Shown here one piece after another: positions 7,522-39,727 of a stretch of DNA of 39,727 bases. A model generated the notes under the pieces. That model searched no databases. It saw only the letters and a list, made by a program, of their open reading frames with translations, and was not told where the DNA came from. The stretch spans positions 1-39,727 of the IMG/VR virus record IMGVR_UViG_3300035492_000012. One strand, written 5' to 3'. Made by a program: the position numbers and the translations under genes. Position 1 is the stretch's first letter; every line of letters begins with the position of its first letter. The stretch comes from a virus.

Positions 7522-8450
7522 GCTTTTACTCCCGGCGCATAGTCCAGATCGCGCCAACGCTTGAACTTAGGATGGCGTAGCTTGCCGGAGGCGGTAGGTT
7601 CCATCGCAGAGACCTCACAGTAGCGACCAATACAGTCTAGGTTGTGGCTGGTGTACTTCTCCATATCAAACTTAGTGAGGCCGGTGGCGTTCACGGTCTC
7701 CCCGTTCTCCAGCTTCACCTGAAAGCCAACAACTTTACCATCATTGGCCTTGCCAGTCTCGCCCCAGACGTAGCCGACCACTTTACCGTCCACCGTGATG
7801 CTCGGCTTGTACTTCCACCAACCAGAGACCTTGCCGCTCTTGTACGGGATGTCAGGCGCTTTCACCACCAGCCCCTCAAACCCACGGTCGCGGGCAGCAG
7901 CGTACATAGTCTCGACCTCCGCCAGCGAGGTGCAGCGCACACGGCCCTCTCCGCATACAAGTCGATCTGTAGTCCACACCGGCAACAGGTTGCTCGTAGG
8001 TAGACGATTGTGCAGCACCCGCCCGCTAGGCTTTTGCTGCAACATCTCTGCTGTATACACCATATCGAACACCACGAACTGTACAGCAGCGTCTTCGGGC
8101 AGCGGTGCGTGCGCTCGTAGCAGCCCGGACATCGTGTCGAAGTCCATGCCCCGGATGTGAACCTCAGCATCTAGGCAAAGGTTCACGTCATACGGCTCCA
8201 GCAGTGTGCTCATCAGCTCACGGTACAGGCGGTCGTGGAAGCTATGGAGCGCTTGGATTTCAATACCCTCGCGGGTCGTGATGCTCACGCTTCCCAGTTC
8301 GTTGCCAAGGCGGATCAGGCAACGGAAGCCATCAACCTTGATCCCAGCCCAGACGTAGCCGCAGCGGTCGATGACCTTCTGCACAGCCTTGGGGTTCCAG
8401 TCCACAGCGCTGTGTGGTTTCGGGTGCCATACCCGTTCGGACTTAGCCAC
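7518..8450 (-). CDS. ATP-dependent DNA ligase
   Basis: Motif I AGIKVDGFR, EGLVVK and WWKYKP. Confidence 0.9.
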   Translation of the reverse strand: MAKSERVWHPKPHSAVDWNPKAVQKVIDRCGYVWAGIKVDGFRCLIRLGNELGSVSITTREGIEIQALHSFHDRLYRELMSTLLEPYDVNLCLDAEVHIRGMDFDTMSGLLRAHAPLPEDAAVQFVVFDMVYTAEMLQQKPSGRVLHNRLPTSNLLPVWTTDRLVCGEGRVRCTSLAEVETMYAAARDRGFEGLVVKAPDIPYKSGKVSGWWKYKPSITVDGKVVGYVWGETGKANDGKVVGFQVKLENGETVNATGLTKFDMEKYTSHNLDCIGRYCEVSAMEPTASGKLRHPKFKRWRDLDYAPGVKA

Positions 8451-8907
8451 GGATCATCGCCTCTTTAACCGCAATAAGGCGAGCGTTGAATTGTTCTGCG
8501 TCTGCTTTGTACTTGGCTACTTGCTGTTCCAGATCAGCGCAGCGACGGCGCATGGCCTTGTACTCTCGGTAGACTTCTGGGTGCCCTTCGTCCGCCAGCT
8601 TTTGAATAGCTCGCAGTGCTGCCTCCAGACCTGTCGGTGCGAAGTCTGTCCAGTTCGAGAATATCTGGCTGAGCTTATTCGCCACAGCGGCCCACGCATG
8701 GGCACACTGCTCTTGCGAGGAGTTTGTTTTGCGATAACCGAGCCGCGCCAGTGCCTCTTGGGTGGCCTTGTCCTGCAAATCTACAACGGTGGTACTCAGG
8801 TGCTGCACCTGTGGACCGATACCTGGAACGTCAGTGCGCAGCTCAGTTCTGACGGCGAACCGCTCGGAACCAGCCACGTAAGTCTTAACCTTAACTTCGG
8901 ATTTCAT
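8443..8907 (-). CDS. Hypothetical protein (154 aa)
   Basis: Coding-like ORF. ATG 8907 has GGAG 6 nt upstream and lies just after the helicase stop. The ORF track start is 8919. Confidence 0.75.
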   Translation of the reverse strand: MKSEVKVKTYVAGSERFAVRTELRTDVPGIGPQVQHLSTTVVDLQDKATQEALARLGYRKTNSSQEQCAHAWAAVANKLSQIFSNWTDFAPTGLEAALRAIQKLADEGHPEVYREYKAMRRRCADLEQQVAKYKADAEQFNARLIAVKEAMIRG

Positions 8908-8908
8908 A

Positions 8909-10183
8909 TCAAACTCCATCGGTGAATTGGCAGGTGTCTGCCTGGAATACTATCTCAGCCTCAACATGCCCAGGCTTACCGGGCATCTGAAACTTGTTCT
9001 TTGGTGTGGCTATGCCGCGCAGTTTAGACATCTCGGCGGAGTCTAGGGCACCCAGCATCAGGATGATGTCGGTTGCGCCTTGGATGCCGGTCTTACTATC
9101 CTTGAGTGCAGAGTACGGAGGAAACAGCATGTTCCCACCCTCTGCGCTGACCTGCACTGTAGCCATGCTCACAAAGTCGTGCCGAACAGCCATCTCCCGA
9201 GCCTGCTGCCACTTCTGCTCAGTCTCGTCGGCTTTGTTCACAGCACCGGCACCGGGCAGGCGGAAGTTCGCCAACATATCCCAGACCACCACGCATGGGC
9301 GCATGGCCTCGATAACCGTCTCGATTTGGGCAAGGCTGGCACCGTGCATATCCTTCACACGGATGCGGTCTGCCCGACCAACGGCCTTAGCGTACTGCGC
9401 TGCGAGCTTACCCTCATTGGACAAATGGATCAGCTCTGGCATCTTCAATCCCAGCGCCGCTTGGTACAGGCGCGGCACAATGCGCTGCCCCTTACCCTCG
9501 TTGTTCAGCCAGAGAATAGGGCGGTCTGGGTCGAAGAACTGGTCAACCTGCTTAGCGAAGTGCGCCAGAATGAAGGCGATAAGGGAGGTCTTGCCCTTGT
9601 CCGGGCGAGCGCCGATAGCGATACTAGCCCCGCCAAGCAGGCCCTTAATGTGCTCACGTAGCACAGTCGTCGGGAACTTCAAGCCGTAGTCTTCTCCCTC
9701 AGCTTTCAGGATGGACTCGATGCTGTCGTCGATCCAGTCGGTAGGGGCGGACTGGCTGATGTTGCGCAGAGTGTCCTGGGACATCCTGGAAACCTCGTGC
9801 GCCAGCTCCACCTCCCCACCGTTCTGGTACTTGGTCAGTAGACTGCCGAGCCTCCCGGCCAGCTCAAGTTCAGTGAGCTGCATCACAACGCCCGCAACCG
9901 AGTCCGCTGGGAACGTAGTCTGCAAACGACTGGCCTGATGTAGCGCTAGCTGTATCTGTTCTCGGGAGCTACTGCTGCACCGCAGCTTTATCAAAGCGCA
10001 CAACGAGTCCACGTCCAGGTACTCGTGGGTCGGGTATGCTTCCCAGTACACCGGATACCACTGCAACAACCACTGCGCATCCTGTCCCAGCATCTCCTTC
10101 GGCACCGACCCGGCAAGGGTACGGTACTTCTGCTTCTCGCGCAGCGCCGTCAGGATCAGCAGGTCGCTACTCATACAGTCCAC
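8909..10183 (-). CDS. DnaB/T7 gp4-type replicative DNA helicase
   Basis: Walker A GARPDKGKTS and Walker B-like CVVVWDML. RecA-fold helicase context next to the primase. Confidence 0.9.
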   Translation of the reverse strand: MDCMSSDLLILTALREKQKYRTLAGSVPKEMLGQDAQWLLQWYPVYWEAYPTHEYLDVDSLCALIKLRCSSSSREQIQLALHQASRLQTTFPADSVAGVVMQLTELELAGRLGSLLTKYQNGGEVELAHEVSRMSQDTLRNISQSAPTDWIDDSIESILKAEGEDYGLKFPTTVLREHIKGLLGGASIAIGARPDKGKTSLIAFILAHFAKQVDQFFDPDRPILWLNNEGKGQRIVPRLYQAALGLKMPELIHLSNEGKLAAQYAKAVGRADRIRVKDMHGASLAQIETVIEAMRPCVVVWDMLANFRLPGAGAVNKADETEQKWQQAREMAVRHDFVSMATVQVSAEGGNMLFPPYSALKDSKTGIQGATDIILMLGALDSAEMSKLRGIATPKNKFQMPGKPGHVEAEIVFQADTCQFTDGV

Positions 10184-10779
10184 CCGTACTCTGTAGCCAG
10201 CTCACGCATACGCTGGATGCGCTCTGGTCGAACCAGCGAATCCCTCAGCTGCCGCAGCGTGTGATCAGCAGGCCCCCAGATGTGCAGCTCTGGCCCCACT
10301 TTTTTGTTCGGCCAATGCCAGAACGCAACGTACTGGTTCAGGTTGAAGTCGAACTCCAGCAAAGCTGCAGCAAGAGAACCCACATCGTACTGCAACAAAT
10401 CCACCTTGCGTCTGCCGCCTGCGACCGGGGCGGCCAGGGTGACTACGTGACTAAGGTTGCGGTCCTGCAGTTCTTCCGGCAATCTACCACCATAATTCAC
10501 ATGCTCTGCAGTGATAAGCCAGCCGCGTCGCTGGTACATAGTGAACGCAACTGTACTAGCATTTGGGGACCTATAGGTTTGGTCCGGGATCACCAGCACG
10601 TCATAGTCCGTAGGTCGTCGGCCATTCACGATGTCACGCACCGCGCCCCCAGCCAAAGCAACCGTAGTACCTTGTGGCACGTCAGCGTACAGGGTCATCA
10701 GCAGCGTCTGTGCCTCAGCCCCAAGTGTGTGCTTCACCGGCTCCAGGCCGATGGCACGTAGTCCTTCAAACACGTCCAT
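10171..10779 (-). CDS. Minimal Pol-beta-superfamily nucleotidyltransferase resembling the head domain of CCA-adding enzymes and poly(A) polymerases
   Basis: LAGGAVRDIVNGRRPTDYDVLV fits GGxVRDxxxGxxxxDxD, and the downstream EFDFNLN resembles RDFTxNA. At 202 aa it has no body or tail domain. Confidence 0.65.
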   Translation of the reverse strand: MDVFEGLRAIGLEPVKHTLGAEAQTLLMTLYADVPQGTTVALAGGAVRDIVNGRRPTDYDVLVIPDQTYRSPNASTVAFTMYQRRGWLITAEHVNYGGRLPEELQDRNLSHVVTLAAPVAGGRRKVDLLQYDVGSLAAALLEFDFNLNQYVAFWHWPNKKVGPELHIWGPADHTLRQLRDSLVRPERIQRMRELATEYGWTV

Positions 10780-11566
10780 ACAACAGTCTCCTGATTTCAG
10801 CAGCAGTTAAATCTTTCGGGTCCTTGTCCGGCACACTCTCAGAGCGGCATGGGATACCAAGTCCCCGCAATCTTTTCAAGGCGTCATCAGCGCCCTTGTA
10901 CCCAGCCTTGTCGCCATCGTAGAACACTACCACCTCGGTAGGTTGCAACGATAGCACCTGCAGCACCAAGGCTTGCGCCATACGTGTGCCCAGTGATGTG
11001 AACACAGTAACCTCCGAGCGCGTAGCCCAGTCCACCTTGATTGCGCTAAGCGCATCCTCGGTGATAACTACAACGCCGCCAGTGCGCGGCTCAGGTAGGT
11101 TCAGATACGCTGGGTATCCTGCGCCAGTGCTGTAGCATACGACCTTCGGAGATACATGCGATTGGAATGACCGGCCAATGTACCCGTACCCTTTGCCGCT
11201 GGGCATACCGATCACTAGGCGCTCAGCCGAGTCACTCCACTGTAACGAGACACGGCGCAGCATAACTGGGTCTAGGCCCTTGCGTGCTAGCGCAGGGCCG
11301 AGCTTCTCCCAATCCCGCAAAGTCAGTTCACGCAGATCGCTGGGCAGCTTCTGTACCCAGTCCTCCTGCACTGCCTCTGGTGCGTACTGCACGAACTCTT
11401 TGGGAATAAAGCCCCCAGCCTTGCAGCGATGACAGTAGCAGGACCAGCCCTCTGGCTTGTTCCGTACTACCATAGCGCTGTTCGACTCAGCCCCATGACG
11501 CACCCGTTGGGAGCGGCCAACCGGGAGCGCCTGCGCCATGTGCAGCCACTCCTCGGTAGGGATCAC
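10766..11566 (-). CDS. DNA primase (zinc-binding plus TOPRIM)
   Basis: RVRHGAESNSAMVV...WSCYCHRCKAGG zinc motif. TOPRIM motifs VVITEDALSA and VVFYDGDKAG. Confidence 0.85.
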   Translation of the reverse strand: MIPTEEWLHMAQALPVGRSQRVRHGAESNSAMVVRNKPEGWSCYCHRCKAGGFIPKEFVQYAPEAVQEDWVQKLPSDLRELTLRDWEKLGPALARKGLDPVMLRRVSLQWSDSAERLVIGMPSGKGYGYIGRSFQSHVSPKVVCYSTGAGYPAYLNLPEPRTGGVVVITEDALSAIKVDWATRSEVTVFTSLGTRMAQALVLQVLSLQPTEVVVFYDGDKAGYKGADDALKRLRGLGIPCRSESVPDKDPKDLTAAEIRRLLYGRV

Positions 11567-12009
11567 GATAAGTACACCGCCAGTGTCGCGGCACCGGTCA
11601 GAGCAAGCAGCCCAGCCACAGTGAGGATACCTGTGCGGGCATTCTCAGCCCGCTGCTCGTAACTCTGGCGAGCGCCATCCAACTGCCACTCAGCCGCCTT
11701 GCGCTGATGCTCGGCGGCTTCCAGCTGACTCTGTACGCGGCCCAGGTCCAGGTGGTGCTTAATCCGCTGGTCTTCTAGCTTATCCTGCAGCACTGCCACC
11801 TCGTCGGACAGGTCGCCTATACGCTCACGGTACTTCTTGCAGTTCTCAGCGAGCTGGAGACGGCCTGCCTTCTCCTCGCGGAGTTCTTCGAGCACTTGTC
11901 CCTCGGGGCTGCTCAAGTGCGCGGCCTTGAGCTGCTGTTCCAGGTTCGCCAGCCTCTTCTTGAGTTGGCGGATTTCTTGGGCCTGTTGACCCGGCTTCTT
12001 CGCGTTCAT
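11563..12009 (-). CDS. Hypothetical coiled-coil protein with a C-terminal transmembrane anchor (148 aa)
   Basis: ATG 12009 has GAGGG upstream, while the ORF track start at 12105 is a TTG inside a hairpin. Heptad-rich sequence ends in GILTVAGLLALTGAATLAVYLS. Confidence 0.7.
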   Translation of the reverse strand: MNAKKPGQQAQEIRQLKKRLANLEQQLKAAHLSSPEGQVLEELREEKAGRLQLAENCKKYRERIGDLSDEVAVLQDKLEDQRIKHHLDLGRVQSQLEAAEHQRKAAEWQLDGARQSYEQRAENARTGILTVAGLLALTGAATLAVYLS

Positions 12010-12092
12010 GCTTGAACCCTCTTGTTTGTCGAATGCAATTTCAGCTGCGCGTGCAGCGCTACCGAGGCCAGCTGAGGCCAGTTGACTTCCCG

Positions 12093-12121
12093 AGATAGCC
12101 CGCAATTCCGGCGGGCTATCT
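12093..12121 (-). other. Stable intergenic hairpin (11-bp stem, 7-nt loop) with no U-tract. Candidate RNA processing or pause site.
   Basis: agatagcccgc / aattccg / gcgggctatct, read directly. Located between the stop at 12137 and the start at 12009. Confidence 0.5.
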
Positions 12122-37957: not shown

Positions 37958-39727
37958 TCAGCAGAAAAAGAACCGGCTACTGAGCACTTCTCGGATGTTG
38001 AAATCTCCTCGTAGTGGGGTCTCCACATCCTGCCCCAAATCCCGCAGAAGCTCTGCGAGTGGGTCATACTCCGCGTACAGGTCCACGAACGCTTCCCGGA
38101 TATGCTGATGCATACGATCTACATCGCTTGGGTGTGTCCCAAAGCTGTCGTGGATACAAACCATACTCAAACCGTCTGCCTGCATACGCTCAGCCACCAT
38201 ACTGAGGTGTGTTGCGTCGAGGCTGTGAATCAAGTTAGGGCTGATGCTGTTCTGCGTGCGGCGAGGATTCAGCTCGTCTGAGGTATCCCGGACCACAACC
38301 TTGCTCAGGCCGAGGCTGCGGATCGGAACCCGCTTCTCCACCTGCTTTCTGGAATCCATACCGACCAGCAGGCCGAAGCGCGTCTTCCACGTCAGGGTAT
38401 GCGATGTGCCGTGCGCCCTGGCCCGCTCACGCAACCAGCGCATACACGCTGCCGCCGCAGGTACAGTGGCCTCGATGCTTGAGAAGATCACGTCAGCCGC
38501 GTAGTTAGCCATCGCGATAACAGACGCAGCCTCGTGCCGAAAGCCAGTATCATCTAACTGCGATGCGATGTCCAGAGCTACGTTACGCTTCGTCGCACCG
38601 TATACGTAGGTCATCACAGGCTTCTTTACCATGCTGCGGGGCATATCCAGGTCTAGCCATAGCTGCGCACACAGTTGGTACTTGTGCAGCGGATTCGCTG
38701 CGTCCTTACGGAACTGCGCCTGCGCTACCTCTCCTACGCGGGTGTAGATGTCAGCCTTGCTTCCAGTGCAGTCCAGCAGGTTTGTGTACTTGGCACCAAC
38801 CGGGTCTCGTAGAATTGCCGAGAAGTGCTGCAATCCTGAACAGGTCGCATCCATGTGGATTGGTAGCCCCGTGCGATACGTCTTAGGATCGCCACTAGCA
38901 TAAGCAGCGGCCAACTCGCGCACAGCAGCAAGCGCACTCAGCGGTGCATCTGCAGCGCGGTACAGGTCTGAGTCTTCCGGGGCCACTGCGTCAGCGGCCA
39001 GCGTATCCCATCGCTCATCTACCCAAGCGACCCGCTCTGGGAAGTCGGCCTTATCAAAGCCGAAGCAGTTCGCAATATGCACCTTCAACCAGAACACGCC
39101 GCGACTACCAAGTGCCTTCTTCTCTGCGAAGTGTAGCACCGAGCGGGTCCCGTCAGTCCCTTGAGGATTCGGGGAGCCGGAGTAGTACATCCGTTGCCGG
39201 AAGTCTAGGAACACCGGAAACCAGACTTCCCGGTCGCGCAATTCGCGGAGAATCTTGACTTGGCCAGCCGCTTCGATGACGGAGCCTTTACGGCGCAGGT
39301 CTGATGTGTACCACTCGGCCATCTGTCGCTTCCAGTTCGTGAAGATAGCAGCCTGCTCTTCGGTGGCCTGGAGAAACTCAAACCCGTCTGGGAGTGGGAA
39401 GGCAGGTTTAGGATGCTCATGCCTGCGCGGCATACCGAGAACTTCCTGCCCCAACTCCCACAGATGCACCATGCAATCTACCGCAGTCGGCTCCATGTGG
39501 AATGGCGTAGACTGTAGGTAGTTCACCACATTCAGCAGACGTGGACTCTCAGCTATGCTCTCGTACACTTGGCGACGTACTGCGGGACGGGCCGATGTGA
39601 TCACCAGCGGGCGGCTGGCCTCGTTCGTATAGTATCCTCCATCTAGGGCATTAGTCCACGGCTTAGGTGGACACACCATCGGGTTAGCTACAGTGTGCAG
39701 CCACGGCAGCTTGTTCAGCAGCTCCAT
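37958..39727 (-). CDS. Single-subunit DNA-directed RNA polymerase, C-terminal 589 aa (the N-terminus is at 781..128 across the junction)
   Basis: PIHMDATCSGLQH, MTYVYGAT and CIHDSFGTH parallel the T7 RNAP catalytic motifs. Confidence 0.95.
   Translation of the reverse strand: MELLNKLPWLHTVANPMVCPPKPWTNALDGGYYTNEASRPLVITSARPAVRRQVYESIAESPRLLNVVNYLQSTPFHMEPTAVDCMVHLWELGQEVLGMPRRHEHPKPAFPLPDGFEFLQATEEQAAIFTNWKRQMAEWYTSDLRRKGSVIEAAGQVKILRELRDREVWFPVFLDFRQRMYYSGSPNPQGTDGTRSVLHFAEKKALGSRGVFWLKVHIANCFGFDKADFPERVAWVDERWDTLAADAVAPEDSDLYRAADAPLSALAAVRELAAAYASGDPKTYRTGLPIHMDATCSGLQHFSAILRDPVGAKYTNLLDCTGSKADIYTRVGEVAQAQFRKDAANPLHKYQLCAQLWLDLDMPRSMVKKPVMTYVYGATKRNVALDIASQLDDTGFRHEAASVIAMANYAADVIFSSIEATVPAAAACMRWLRERARAHGTSHTLTWKTRFGLLVGMDSRKQVEKRVPIRSLGLSKVVVRDTSDELNPRRTQNSISPNLIHSLDATHLSMVAERMQADGLSMVCIHDSFGTHPSDVDRMHQHIREAFVDLYAEYDPLAELLRDLGQDVETPLRGDFNIREVLSSRFFFC
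39601..39727. repeat. Second copy of the 127-bp contig-end overlap
   Basis: Identical to 1..127. Confidence 0.95.

Follow-up and report, generated by a model that had tools for sequence, protein, structure and literature searches.

The DNA analyzed here, referred to as the window, is the whole stretch of 39,727 nucleotides (nt) at positions 1 to 39,727 of the IMG/VR virus record IMGVR_UViG_3300035492_000012. Our subject is a gene on its minus strand (positions 10171–10779) encoding a 202 amino acid (aa) protein, predicted to be a small class II-type nucleotidyltransferase (NTase) made up of a head domain and a first neck helix. An earlier note had singled out this open reading frame (ORF) for the strings GGAVRDIVNGRRPTDYD and DFNLN; both are present, at residues 44–60 and 144–148, respectively. 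The gene lies between those for a Toprim DNA primase (10766–11566, minus strand; Toprim_2; PHROG 47, E 3e-31) upstream and a DnaB-like helicase (8909–10174, minus strand; PHROG 19, E 1e-64) downstream, and it overlaps both. The last 14 nt of the primase gene cover the NTase start, and the NTase stop codon TGA (10173–10171) and the helicase ATG (10174–10172) share the sequence ATGA. That helicase start, which gives a protein of 421 aa, agrees with independent gene calls on metagenome contigs. A Shine-Dalgarno sequence, AGGAG (10788–10792, minus strand), lies within the 3′-terminal part of the primase gene with an 8-nt spacer to the NTase ATG at 10777–10779; the minus-strand letters 5′ of the start read TGAAATCAGGAGACTGTTGT-ATG. 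Judged from this ribosome-binding site and the overlaps, the NTase appears to be translationally coupled to the primase and helicase, and it would thus be produced together with the replication proteins. Beyond the helicase lie a 158 aa orphan ORF, an ATP-dependent DNA ligase and a family A DNA polymerase.

Around the NTase gene, the window sequence shows neither a sigma-70-like promoter nor a convincing terminator, and the window as a whole contains no tRNA genes and no Rfam family. The G+C content of the gene (~0.57–0.58) equals that of its flanks, with no compositional anomaly, and it is therefore not thought to be a recent foreign insertion. The identical protein occurs on seven public metagenome contigs, two of which (39,630 and 39,556 bp) have the same gene order as the window and a matching size; these two are assemblies of the same phage from other samples. 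A 93%-identical homologue, P0001, is encoded on a contig with the same primase-NTase-helicase order; the two proteins are separated by 14 substitutions, none at a residue invariant in the family described below, and the ratio of nonsynonymous to synonymous substitution rates (dN/dS) is 0.28. A word-indexed homology search returned one close relative for the window NTase and five phiKMV-group proteins for gp16 of phage LUZ19; when repeated with an alignment of those relatives, it detected no further homologues. With a ribosome-binding site, coupling overlaps, purifying selection and recurrence on contigs, the NTase ORF is a real gene.

Family membership and ancestry

Residues 27–201 of the window NTase match PHROG 1614, "nucleotidyltransferase", with an E value of 5e-23. 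When 1.84 billion representative proteins were searched exhaustively with a profile, 189 representative relatives were retrieved at E ≤ 1e-3, virtually all of them stand-alone proteins (145–273 aa, median 194) that are matched end to end; no informative additional Pfam domain is present in the longer family members. Long hits were limited to two proteins, each composed of tandem complete class II CCA-enzyme-like units. One of these, P0009 (1455 aa), contains four copies of motif A; the other, P0137 (1347 aa), contains four matched stretches, in which a stricter motif A pattern located three copies. They are either real multi-enzyme polyproteins or artefacts of gene calling or assembly. At the nucleotide-translated level (tblastn), full-length homologues of 28–31% identity are found in 96 phage genomes, mostly phiKMV-like Pseudomonas phages and including LUZ19 (gp16) and phiKMV itself. 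The best matches to the window NTase among predicted viral structures (BFVD) are likewise small NTases of Autographiviridae, from LKD16, Pectobacterium phages PP2 and DU_PP_II, Dickeya phage Ninurta, Pseudomonas phage phiNV3, Aeromonas phage phiAS7, Yersinia phage fHe-Yen3-01, Pantoea phage LIMEzero, Providencia phage PS3, Proteus phage phiP4-3, Acinetobacter phage fBenAci002, Caulobacter phage Cd1 and Ralstonia phage RSB3. A single-protein search of IMG/VR found no related locus, and species-representative bacterial and archaeal genomes contained no relative, although only two narrow peptide patterns were searched for and absence from cells is not thereby established.

The family has attracted inconsistent labels in GenBank: "hypothetical protein", "nucleotidyltransferase", "tRNA nucleotidyltransferase", "Poly A polymerase head domain" and "putative ppGpp synthetase". 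PF01743 (PolyA_pol) is matched by 87 of 150 family members. The window NTase alone scores 17.4 bits against the Pfam PolyA_pol head, under a gathering threshold of 23 and over residues 42–64 only, and NCBIfam yielded just two far-sub-threshold PcnB matches confined to motif A. A further Pfam assignment, PF26128, precomputed for one homologue, was not reproduced with a local copy of Pfam and was not used.

Two published observations concern members of this family. Among Pectobacterium Autographiviridae, 37 of 46 have a "tRNA-nucleotidyltransferase" gene, a strong enrichment over the 60 of more than 500 other Autographiviridae that have one (Evseev et al., PMC7693777). Gp22 of the Klebsiella phage fHe-Kpn01, a protein of 182 aa with an HHpred likeness to CCA-adding enzymes, is toxic when expressed alone in Escherichia coli (Spruit et al., PMC7291057). 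In our hands Gp22 belongs to the same family, its alignment to the family by hhalign having 99.7% probability and an E value of 1e-25 and including the invariant arginine. The window NTase is thus best regarded, on sequence grounds, as a divergent member of a widespread and already annotated phage family of ~170–230 aa proteins and not as a new system. Nor is it an oddity of this phage: PHROG 1614 is large, and in other phages its genes lie at various loci. Judged from the named members and the structure-library matches, the family is spread almost entirely among phiKMV- and T7-type podophages.

An AlphaFold2 model of the window NTase, built from a 150-sequence alignment, has a mean predicted local distance difference test score (pLDDT) of 92.8 and a predicted TM score (pTM) of 0.88; an earlier run on seven sequences (pLDDT 49.9) was discarded. 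The top 35 Protein Data Bank (PDB) matches to the model by Foldseek are all class II tRNA nucleotidyltransferases or E. coli poly(A) polymerase I (PAP I), with E values down to 1e-6, a probability of 1.00 and query TM scores of 0.55–0.58 over ~200 columns, which is essentially the whole protein. The leading entries are the Aquifex aeolicus CC-adding enzyme (3wfo–3wfs), the Thermotoga maritima CCA-adding enzyme (3h37–3h3a and 5hc9), A-adding enzymes (1vfg, 4wbz and 4wby), the human mitochondrial enzyme (4x4w) and E. coli PAP I (3aqk–3aqm). DNA polymerase mu (among ranks 36–50) and TUTase appear lower in the list, at TM scores of 0.35–0.38. Profile comparisons agree. The family profile matches class II CCA-adding enzymes of the PDB at E 2e-11 and, over its whole length, residues 20–199 of E. 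coli PAP I at E 6e-10. Comparison by hhalign with a class II head-plus-neck alignment, albeit a small one consisting of E. coli CCA, E. coli PAP I and the tandem CCA-like units, gave a probability of 98.1% and E 1.4e-13, pairing residues 39–198 of the window NTase with residues 2–145 (of 412) of the E. coli CCA enzyme.

The class II head signature recognized in the earlier note is therefore borne out by both kinds of search, which placed the protein with the class II NTases and poly(A) polymerases. The residues that characterize the Pol-beta superfamily lie on confidently modelled strands, as A43-G44-G45, D58-Y-D60-V and V126-D127-L128, and the model ends in a single C-terminal helix (residues 185–197). 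From the model and the alignments together, the window NTase comprises the head domain of the CCA-adding/PAP lineage, followed by a hairpin resembling motif C and by the first helix of the neck. The same note had the neck, body and tail all missing; this is correct for the body and tail, but the neck is partly kept, in the form of the hairpin and of the first helix with its motif D arginine.

Motifs kept and lost

Conservation was scored across 153 family sequences, using the motif definitions of PMC7730189. Motif A, GGAVRDIVNGRRPTDYD (10600–10650, minus strand; residues 44–60), aligns to GGAVRD...DRD of the E. coli CCA enzyme. No variation occurs at G44, G45, D58 or D60, at least 98% of the members have R48 and D49, and the two-metal DxD is fully present in the window NTase. 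The candidate for a third metal carboxylate is D127 (10399–10401, minus strand), an h[DE]h element reading VDL on the strand formed by residues 122–131 of the model; from its position, D127 is probably the third metal-binding residue. The position is occupied by aspartate in 93% of the family. The remaining ~7% have glutamine, asparagine or glutamate there, such that either a third metal ligand at this site is dispensable or some members are inactive.

Motif B, the ribose-binding motif of class II enzymes (PMC7730189), has a counterpart in FDFNLNQ (10333–10353, minus strand; residues 143–149), whose aligned counterparts are RRDLTINA in E. coli CCA and RRDFTINS in PAP I. D144 is invariant (100%) and N148 is 94% conserved. 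The two arginines of the class II pattern RRDxxxN are, in contrast, replaced, by E142-F143 in the window NTase and by x-F in the family, so that only half of motif B is kept. The flexible hairpin region of motif C is recognizable through G169, L175 and R179. What is left of motif D is VRPERIQR (10210–10233, minus strand; residues 183–190), where EDxxR, or EDPLR, aligns with V183-R184-P-E-R187. R187 is invariant (100%) and equivalent to the motif D arginine that contacts the base, but the Glu-Asp template is not conserved, the family consensus being [VIL][TS]PER. The position of the motif D aspartate is evidently not constrained, because it is R184 here and glutamine in the 93%-identical homologue. 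Nothing in the hhalign comparison or the model corresponds to motif E, to the remaining neck, or to the body and tail, which position and bind the tRNA in class II enzymes, and the protein ends 15 residues after R187.

Could the motifs be a chance resemblance, or the gene a decayed or structural remnant? The Pfam PolyA_pol score of 17.4 bits, below the 23-bit gathering threshold, is what such an explanation has to offer. Against it, the metal- and nucleotide-binding residues are invariant over ~150 diverse members, those same sites are unchanged between the window NTase and its nearest homologue at a dN/dS of 0.28, and the profile and fold matches are strong. This explanation is effectively refuted.

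The residues kept are thus the class II contacts for the metals, the ribose and one base edge, and those lost are the parts conferring CCA specificity. We consequently regard the protein as an active-looking nucleotidyltransferase core, and apparently not a bona fide CCA-adding enzyme: because it has neither the Glu-Asp pair that templates C and A, nor motif E, nor a body and tail with which to measure the tRNA, faithful CCA addition should not be possible. A minimal CCA-adding (or CC- or A-adding) enzyme that mends tRNA ends damaged by host defences or toxins, the role named first in the earlier note, was nevertheless weighed. Its closest structures and profiles are indeed those of CCA-, CC- and A-adding enzymes; tRNA 3′ tails are known targets of immunity, through Cas12a3 (PMC12851939), toxSAS (PMC11559606) and MenT (PMC10435456); and full-length CCA-adding enzymes of jumbo phages have been interpreted as serving RNA repair (PMC7824862). 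Set against these points is the behavior of the template itself. When the three template positions of the human CCA enzyme were randomized and CCA or A repair was selected, only EDxxR and GDxxR were returned, and no replacement of the motif D aspartate or arginine was recovered (PMC11784652); the aspartate that is indispensable there is the one not conserved here. In addition to the absence of motif E, body and tail, no tRNAs are encoded in the window, the hosts already own a CCA-adding enzyme, and the toxicity of Gp22 in E. coli (PMC7291057) would be unexpected of a repair enzyme and fits a host-damaging activity better than repair. We judge CCA repair unlikely. The description "CCA-adding-like" in the earlier note thus applies to ancestry but not to mechanism, as EDxxR is reduced to its arginine (VRPER), and, since the EDxxR aspartate is missing, database annotations as a "tRNA" or "CCA" nucleotidyltransferase should not be taken literally.

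Genome context and possible function

The window is a circularly permuted, complete phiKMV-type genome of ~39.6–39.7 kb. Its single-subunit RNA polymerase gene (37958–39727, minus strand; PHROG 414, profile positions 227–816) is cut by the window ends, and because the gene runs off the right end, its N-terminal part should be found at the left end. At the DNA level it is only distantly related to the Pseudomonas phages LKA1 and HHBS14_1, with 73–75% identity over a few kb, and the phage probably represents a new genus-level lineage of Krylovirinae-like phages. Three other small ORFs, all on the minus strand, were noticed. The first, of 158 aa (8443–8919), lies between helicase and ligase and overlaps each; it has no PHROG match and only noise-level Pfam coiled-coil matches, and other small ORFs occupy this helicase/ligase site in LKA1 and HHBS14_1. 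A second, of 180 aa (11563–12105), is just upstream of the primase with a 4-nt overlap. It has a long middle part rich in Glu, Gln and Leu, which is probably coiled-coil, and a hydrophobic C-terminal stretch, TGILTVAGLLALTGAATLAVYL; its PHROG match is marginal only, and it may be a membrane-anchored early or middle protein. The third, of 201 aa (1270–1875), follows the exonuclease genes a short way ahead of the gene for the RNA polymerase, matches PHROG 2252 (E 9.5e-42) and PHROG 801 "dATP/dGTP pyrophosphohydrolase" (E 1.8e-24), and was read as MazG-like.

The separation of primase from helicase, to which the earlier note drew attention, is real in the window: in the nearest relatives, HHBS14_1 and LUZ19, primase and helicase are direct neighbors, and in fHe-Kpn01 they overlap. 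The junction is nonetheless a variable slot. In LKA1 the space between primase and helicase is taken up by a pair of unrelated small ORFs (60 and 69 aa), and in HHBS14_1 it is only a 77-nt gap; the junction sites compared are 10766–10779 in the window, 2960–3348 in L035 and 7139–7217 in L001. The family gene itself is found in several places. It follows the helicase and precedes the ligase in phiKMV-like phages and directly follows the DNA polymerase in fHe-Kpn01. Three IMG/VR contigs have it ~1 kb ahead of the primase and two have it after the ligase, and it is 4–5 kb beyond the ligase in contigs whose layout was taken as T7-like. Contigs carrying it reach ~48 kb, and the complete ones, at 39–48 kb, are of podophage size. 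Because its positions differ among phages, the NTase is best described as an accessory gene that changes place within the DNA-metabolism module, and its position in the window is not mechanistically telling.

The module does, on the other hand, raise the question of a DNA-end enzyme, that is, a terminal (deoxy)nucleotidyl transferase acting on phage DNA 3′ ends, nicks or primers during replication. The gene is always among those for primase, helicase, ligase and DNA polymerase and is coupled to the first two here; moreover, the arginine pair of the ribose motif B is lost, and DNA polymerase mu is among the lower-ranked fold matches. The position in the module is not fixed, however, and the close relatives HHBS14_1 and LKA1 replicate without the NTase. 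The middle region of T7-type phages also carries many genes that are not involved in replication. The best structural neighbors are RNA-end enzymes, with TM scores clearly above that of polymerase mu, the toxicity occurs in uninfected E. coli (PMC7291057), and the enrichment of the gene follows host genus rather than phage lineage (PMC7693777). A DNA-end role is thus improbable.

Our preferred reading, which we hold tentatively and with rather less than even confidence, is that the catalytically intact class II core carries out an untemplated, non-CCA modification of RNA or tRNA 3′ ends. The protein would bind a nucleoside triphosphate (NTP) with two Mg2+ ions and transfer the nucleoside monophosphate (NMP), without a template, onto a 3′-OH, most probably that of a host RNA or tRNA. 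More likely it would tail or alter the 3′ ends of RNA, and its nucleotide specificity would be different or relaxed; its most likely role would be in host take-over or counter-defence, not in DNA synthesis itself. The characterized enzymes of the class II lineage all add NMPs to RNA 3′ ends (PMC7730189, PMC11784652), and it is for this reason, together with the toxicity of Gp22 alone in E. coli and the host-genus-biased distribution, that an RNA-end acceptor is favored. Toxicity of Gp22 by itself further implies that the family needs no phage partner to act on a conserved host component, and a host-genus enrichment combined with a variable locus is typical of an accessory host-interaction gene.

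Several points weigh against RNA-end modification. The family is acidic (median isoelectric point (pI) 4.9, below 6 in 142 of 153 members; 6.3 in the window NTase), and in this it resembles the E. coli CCA head and neck (pI 5.3), unlike the basic PAP I head (9.3–9.6). The E. coli CCA head and neck depend on the body and tail for tRNA binding. With an acidic family and no recognizable RNA-binding domain, unaided binding of RNA is doubtful. Since the motif B arginine pair and the motif D Glu-Asp are lost, neither the donor nucleotide, nor the sugar specificity, nor the acceptor can be read from homology. The constant company of DNA-replication genes could point to a DNA-related role, and no biochemical characterization, activity or substrate was found in the literature for any family member.

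A small acidic protein without a nucleic-acid-binding module would suit nucleotidylation of a small molecule or protein, in which the enzyme would make or cap a nucleotide signal or AMPylate a host protein. The conserved residues are those that bind the donor, and the acceptor-side elements (motif E, body and tail) are gone; some GenBank homologues are also named "putative ppGpp synthetase", a label unsupported by our searches. Yet there is no likeness to RelA/SpoT, CD-NTases or other signaling NTases in PADLOC, in the Pfam matches of 150 members or among the top 50 folds, and we rate a small-molecule or protein target as unlikely as CCA repair.

A possible, if doubtful, extension is that the head-only family has an activity undescribed for class II NTases. 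Examples would be a phage weapon that adds a non-CCA nucleotide to host tRNA or RNA 3′ ends as a tail or cap, acting either as a MenT-like take-over toxin or by neutralizing immunity directed at tRNA ends, or an enzyme that makes a nucleotide product. If so, enrichment by host would mark a specific host defence that the NTase counters. The question is one for the family as a whole, namely which function a class II NTase reduced to its head serves in podophages. This minimal class II core is present in ~97 of ~550 Autographiviridae surveyed (PMC7693777) and in therapeutic phiKMV-type phages, and at least one member is toxic to bacteria. With tRNA 3′ ends having recently emerged as targets of bacterial immunity, knowing whether this family repairs, blocks or mimics such modifications would matter for phage biology, and the family is a possible source of small RNA-tailing enzymes.

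Comparison with known enzymes

Three identities were considered and rejected. RelA/SpoT, suggested by the "ppGpp synthetase" label, has no Pfam RelA_SpoT match in the window NTase or in 150 members and is absent from the top 50 fold matches, and the label is without support. For CD-NTases and defence NTases, PADLOC gave no families at E ≤ 10, and none of 150 members matched CD-NTase models. The third, MenT/AbiEii (DUF1814), comprises small stand-alone NTase toxins that add nucleotides to tRNA acceptor ends (PMC10435456, PMC11541572). These are similar in size to the window NTase and may offer a functional analogy for the toxicity of Gp22, but they are a different family: the match is marginal and confined to motif A (8an4, E 2e-3), no Pfam AbiEii was found in 150 members, and the neighbors of the NTase gene are primase and helicase, with no antitoxin partner.

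The class II tRNA NTases (3wfo–3wfs, 3h37, 1vfg, 4x4w, 1miv and 6ibp) share with the window NTase the head fold, motif A, the motif B aspartate and asparagine, the motif C-like hairpin and the motif D arginine on the first neck helix. The window NTase differs in being half their size and in lacking the motif B arginine pair, the motif D Glu-Asp, motif E and the remaining neck, body and tail; because those parts are missing, neither binding of the tRNA elbow nor templating of C or A would be expected of it. PAP I (PcnB; 3aqk–3aqn) also aligns with the phage family at motifs A and B and at the motif D arginine, and both are described as template-independent, the known activity of PAP I being RNA tailing that is not specific to tRNA. 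PAP I retains RRD and EDPVR, whereas the phage family does not, and its head is basic (pI ~9.3–9.6) and accompanied by a C-terminal RNA-binding region, whereas the phage proteins are acidic and end after the first neck helix.

The closest comparison is of course with the other PHROG 1614 proteins, such as LUZ19 gp16, its homologues in phiKMV and LKD16, the "tRNA nucleotidyltransferase" of PP2 and PP47, and fHe-Kpn01 Gp22. The window NTase has their length class and full-length architecture, the invariant residues GG, RD, DxD, D, FDxNxNQ and ER, and the same type of neighborhood, the DNA-metabolism module of Autographiviridae. It is set apart by an identity of only ~29–33% to any member from an isolate phage, by R184 where the family usually has threonine or serine, and by its position between primase and helicase, which is unique. 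The window thus extends a family already labeled "nucleotidyltransferase" by one divergent member and one new locus.

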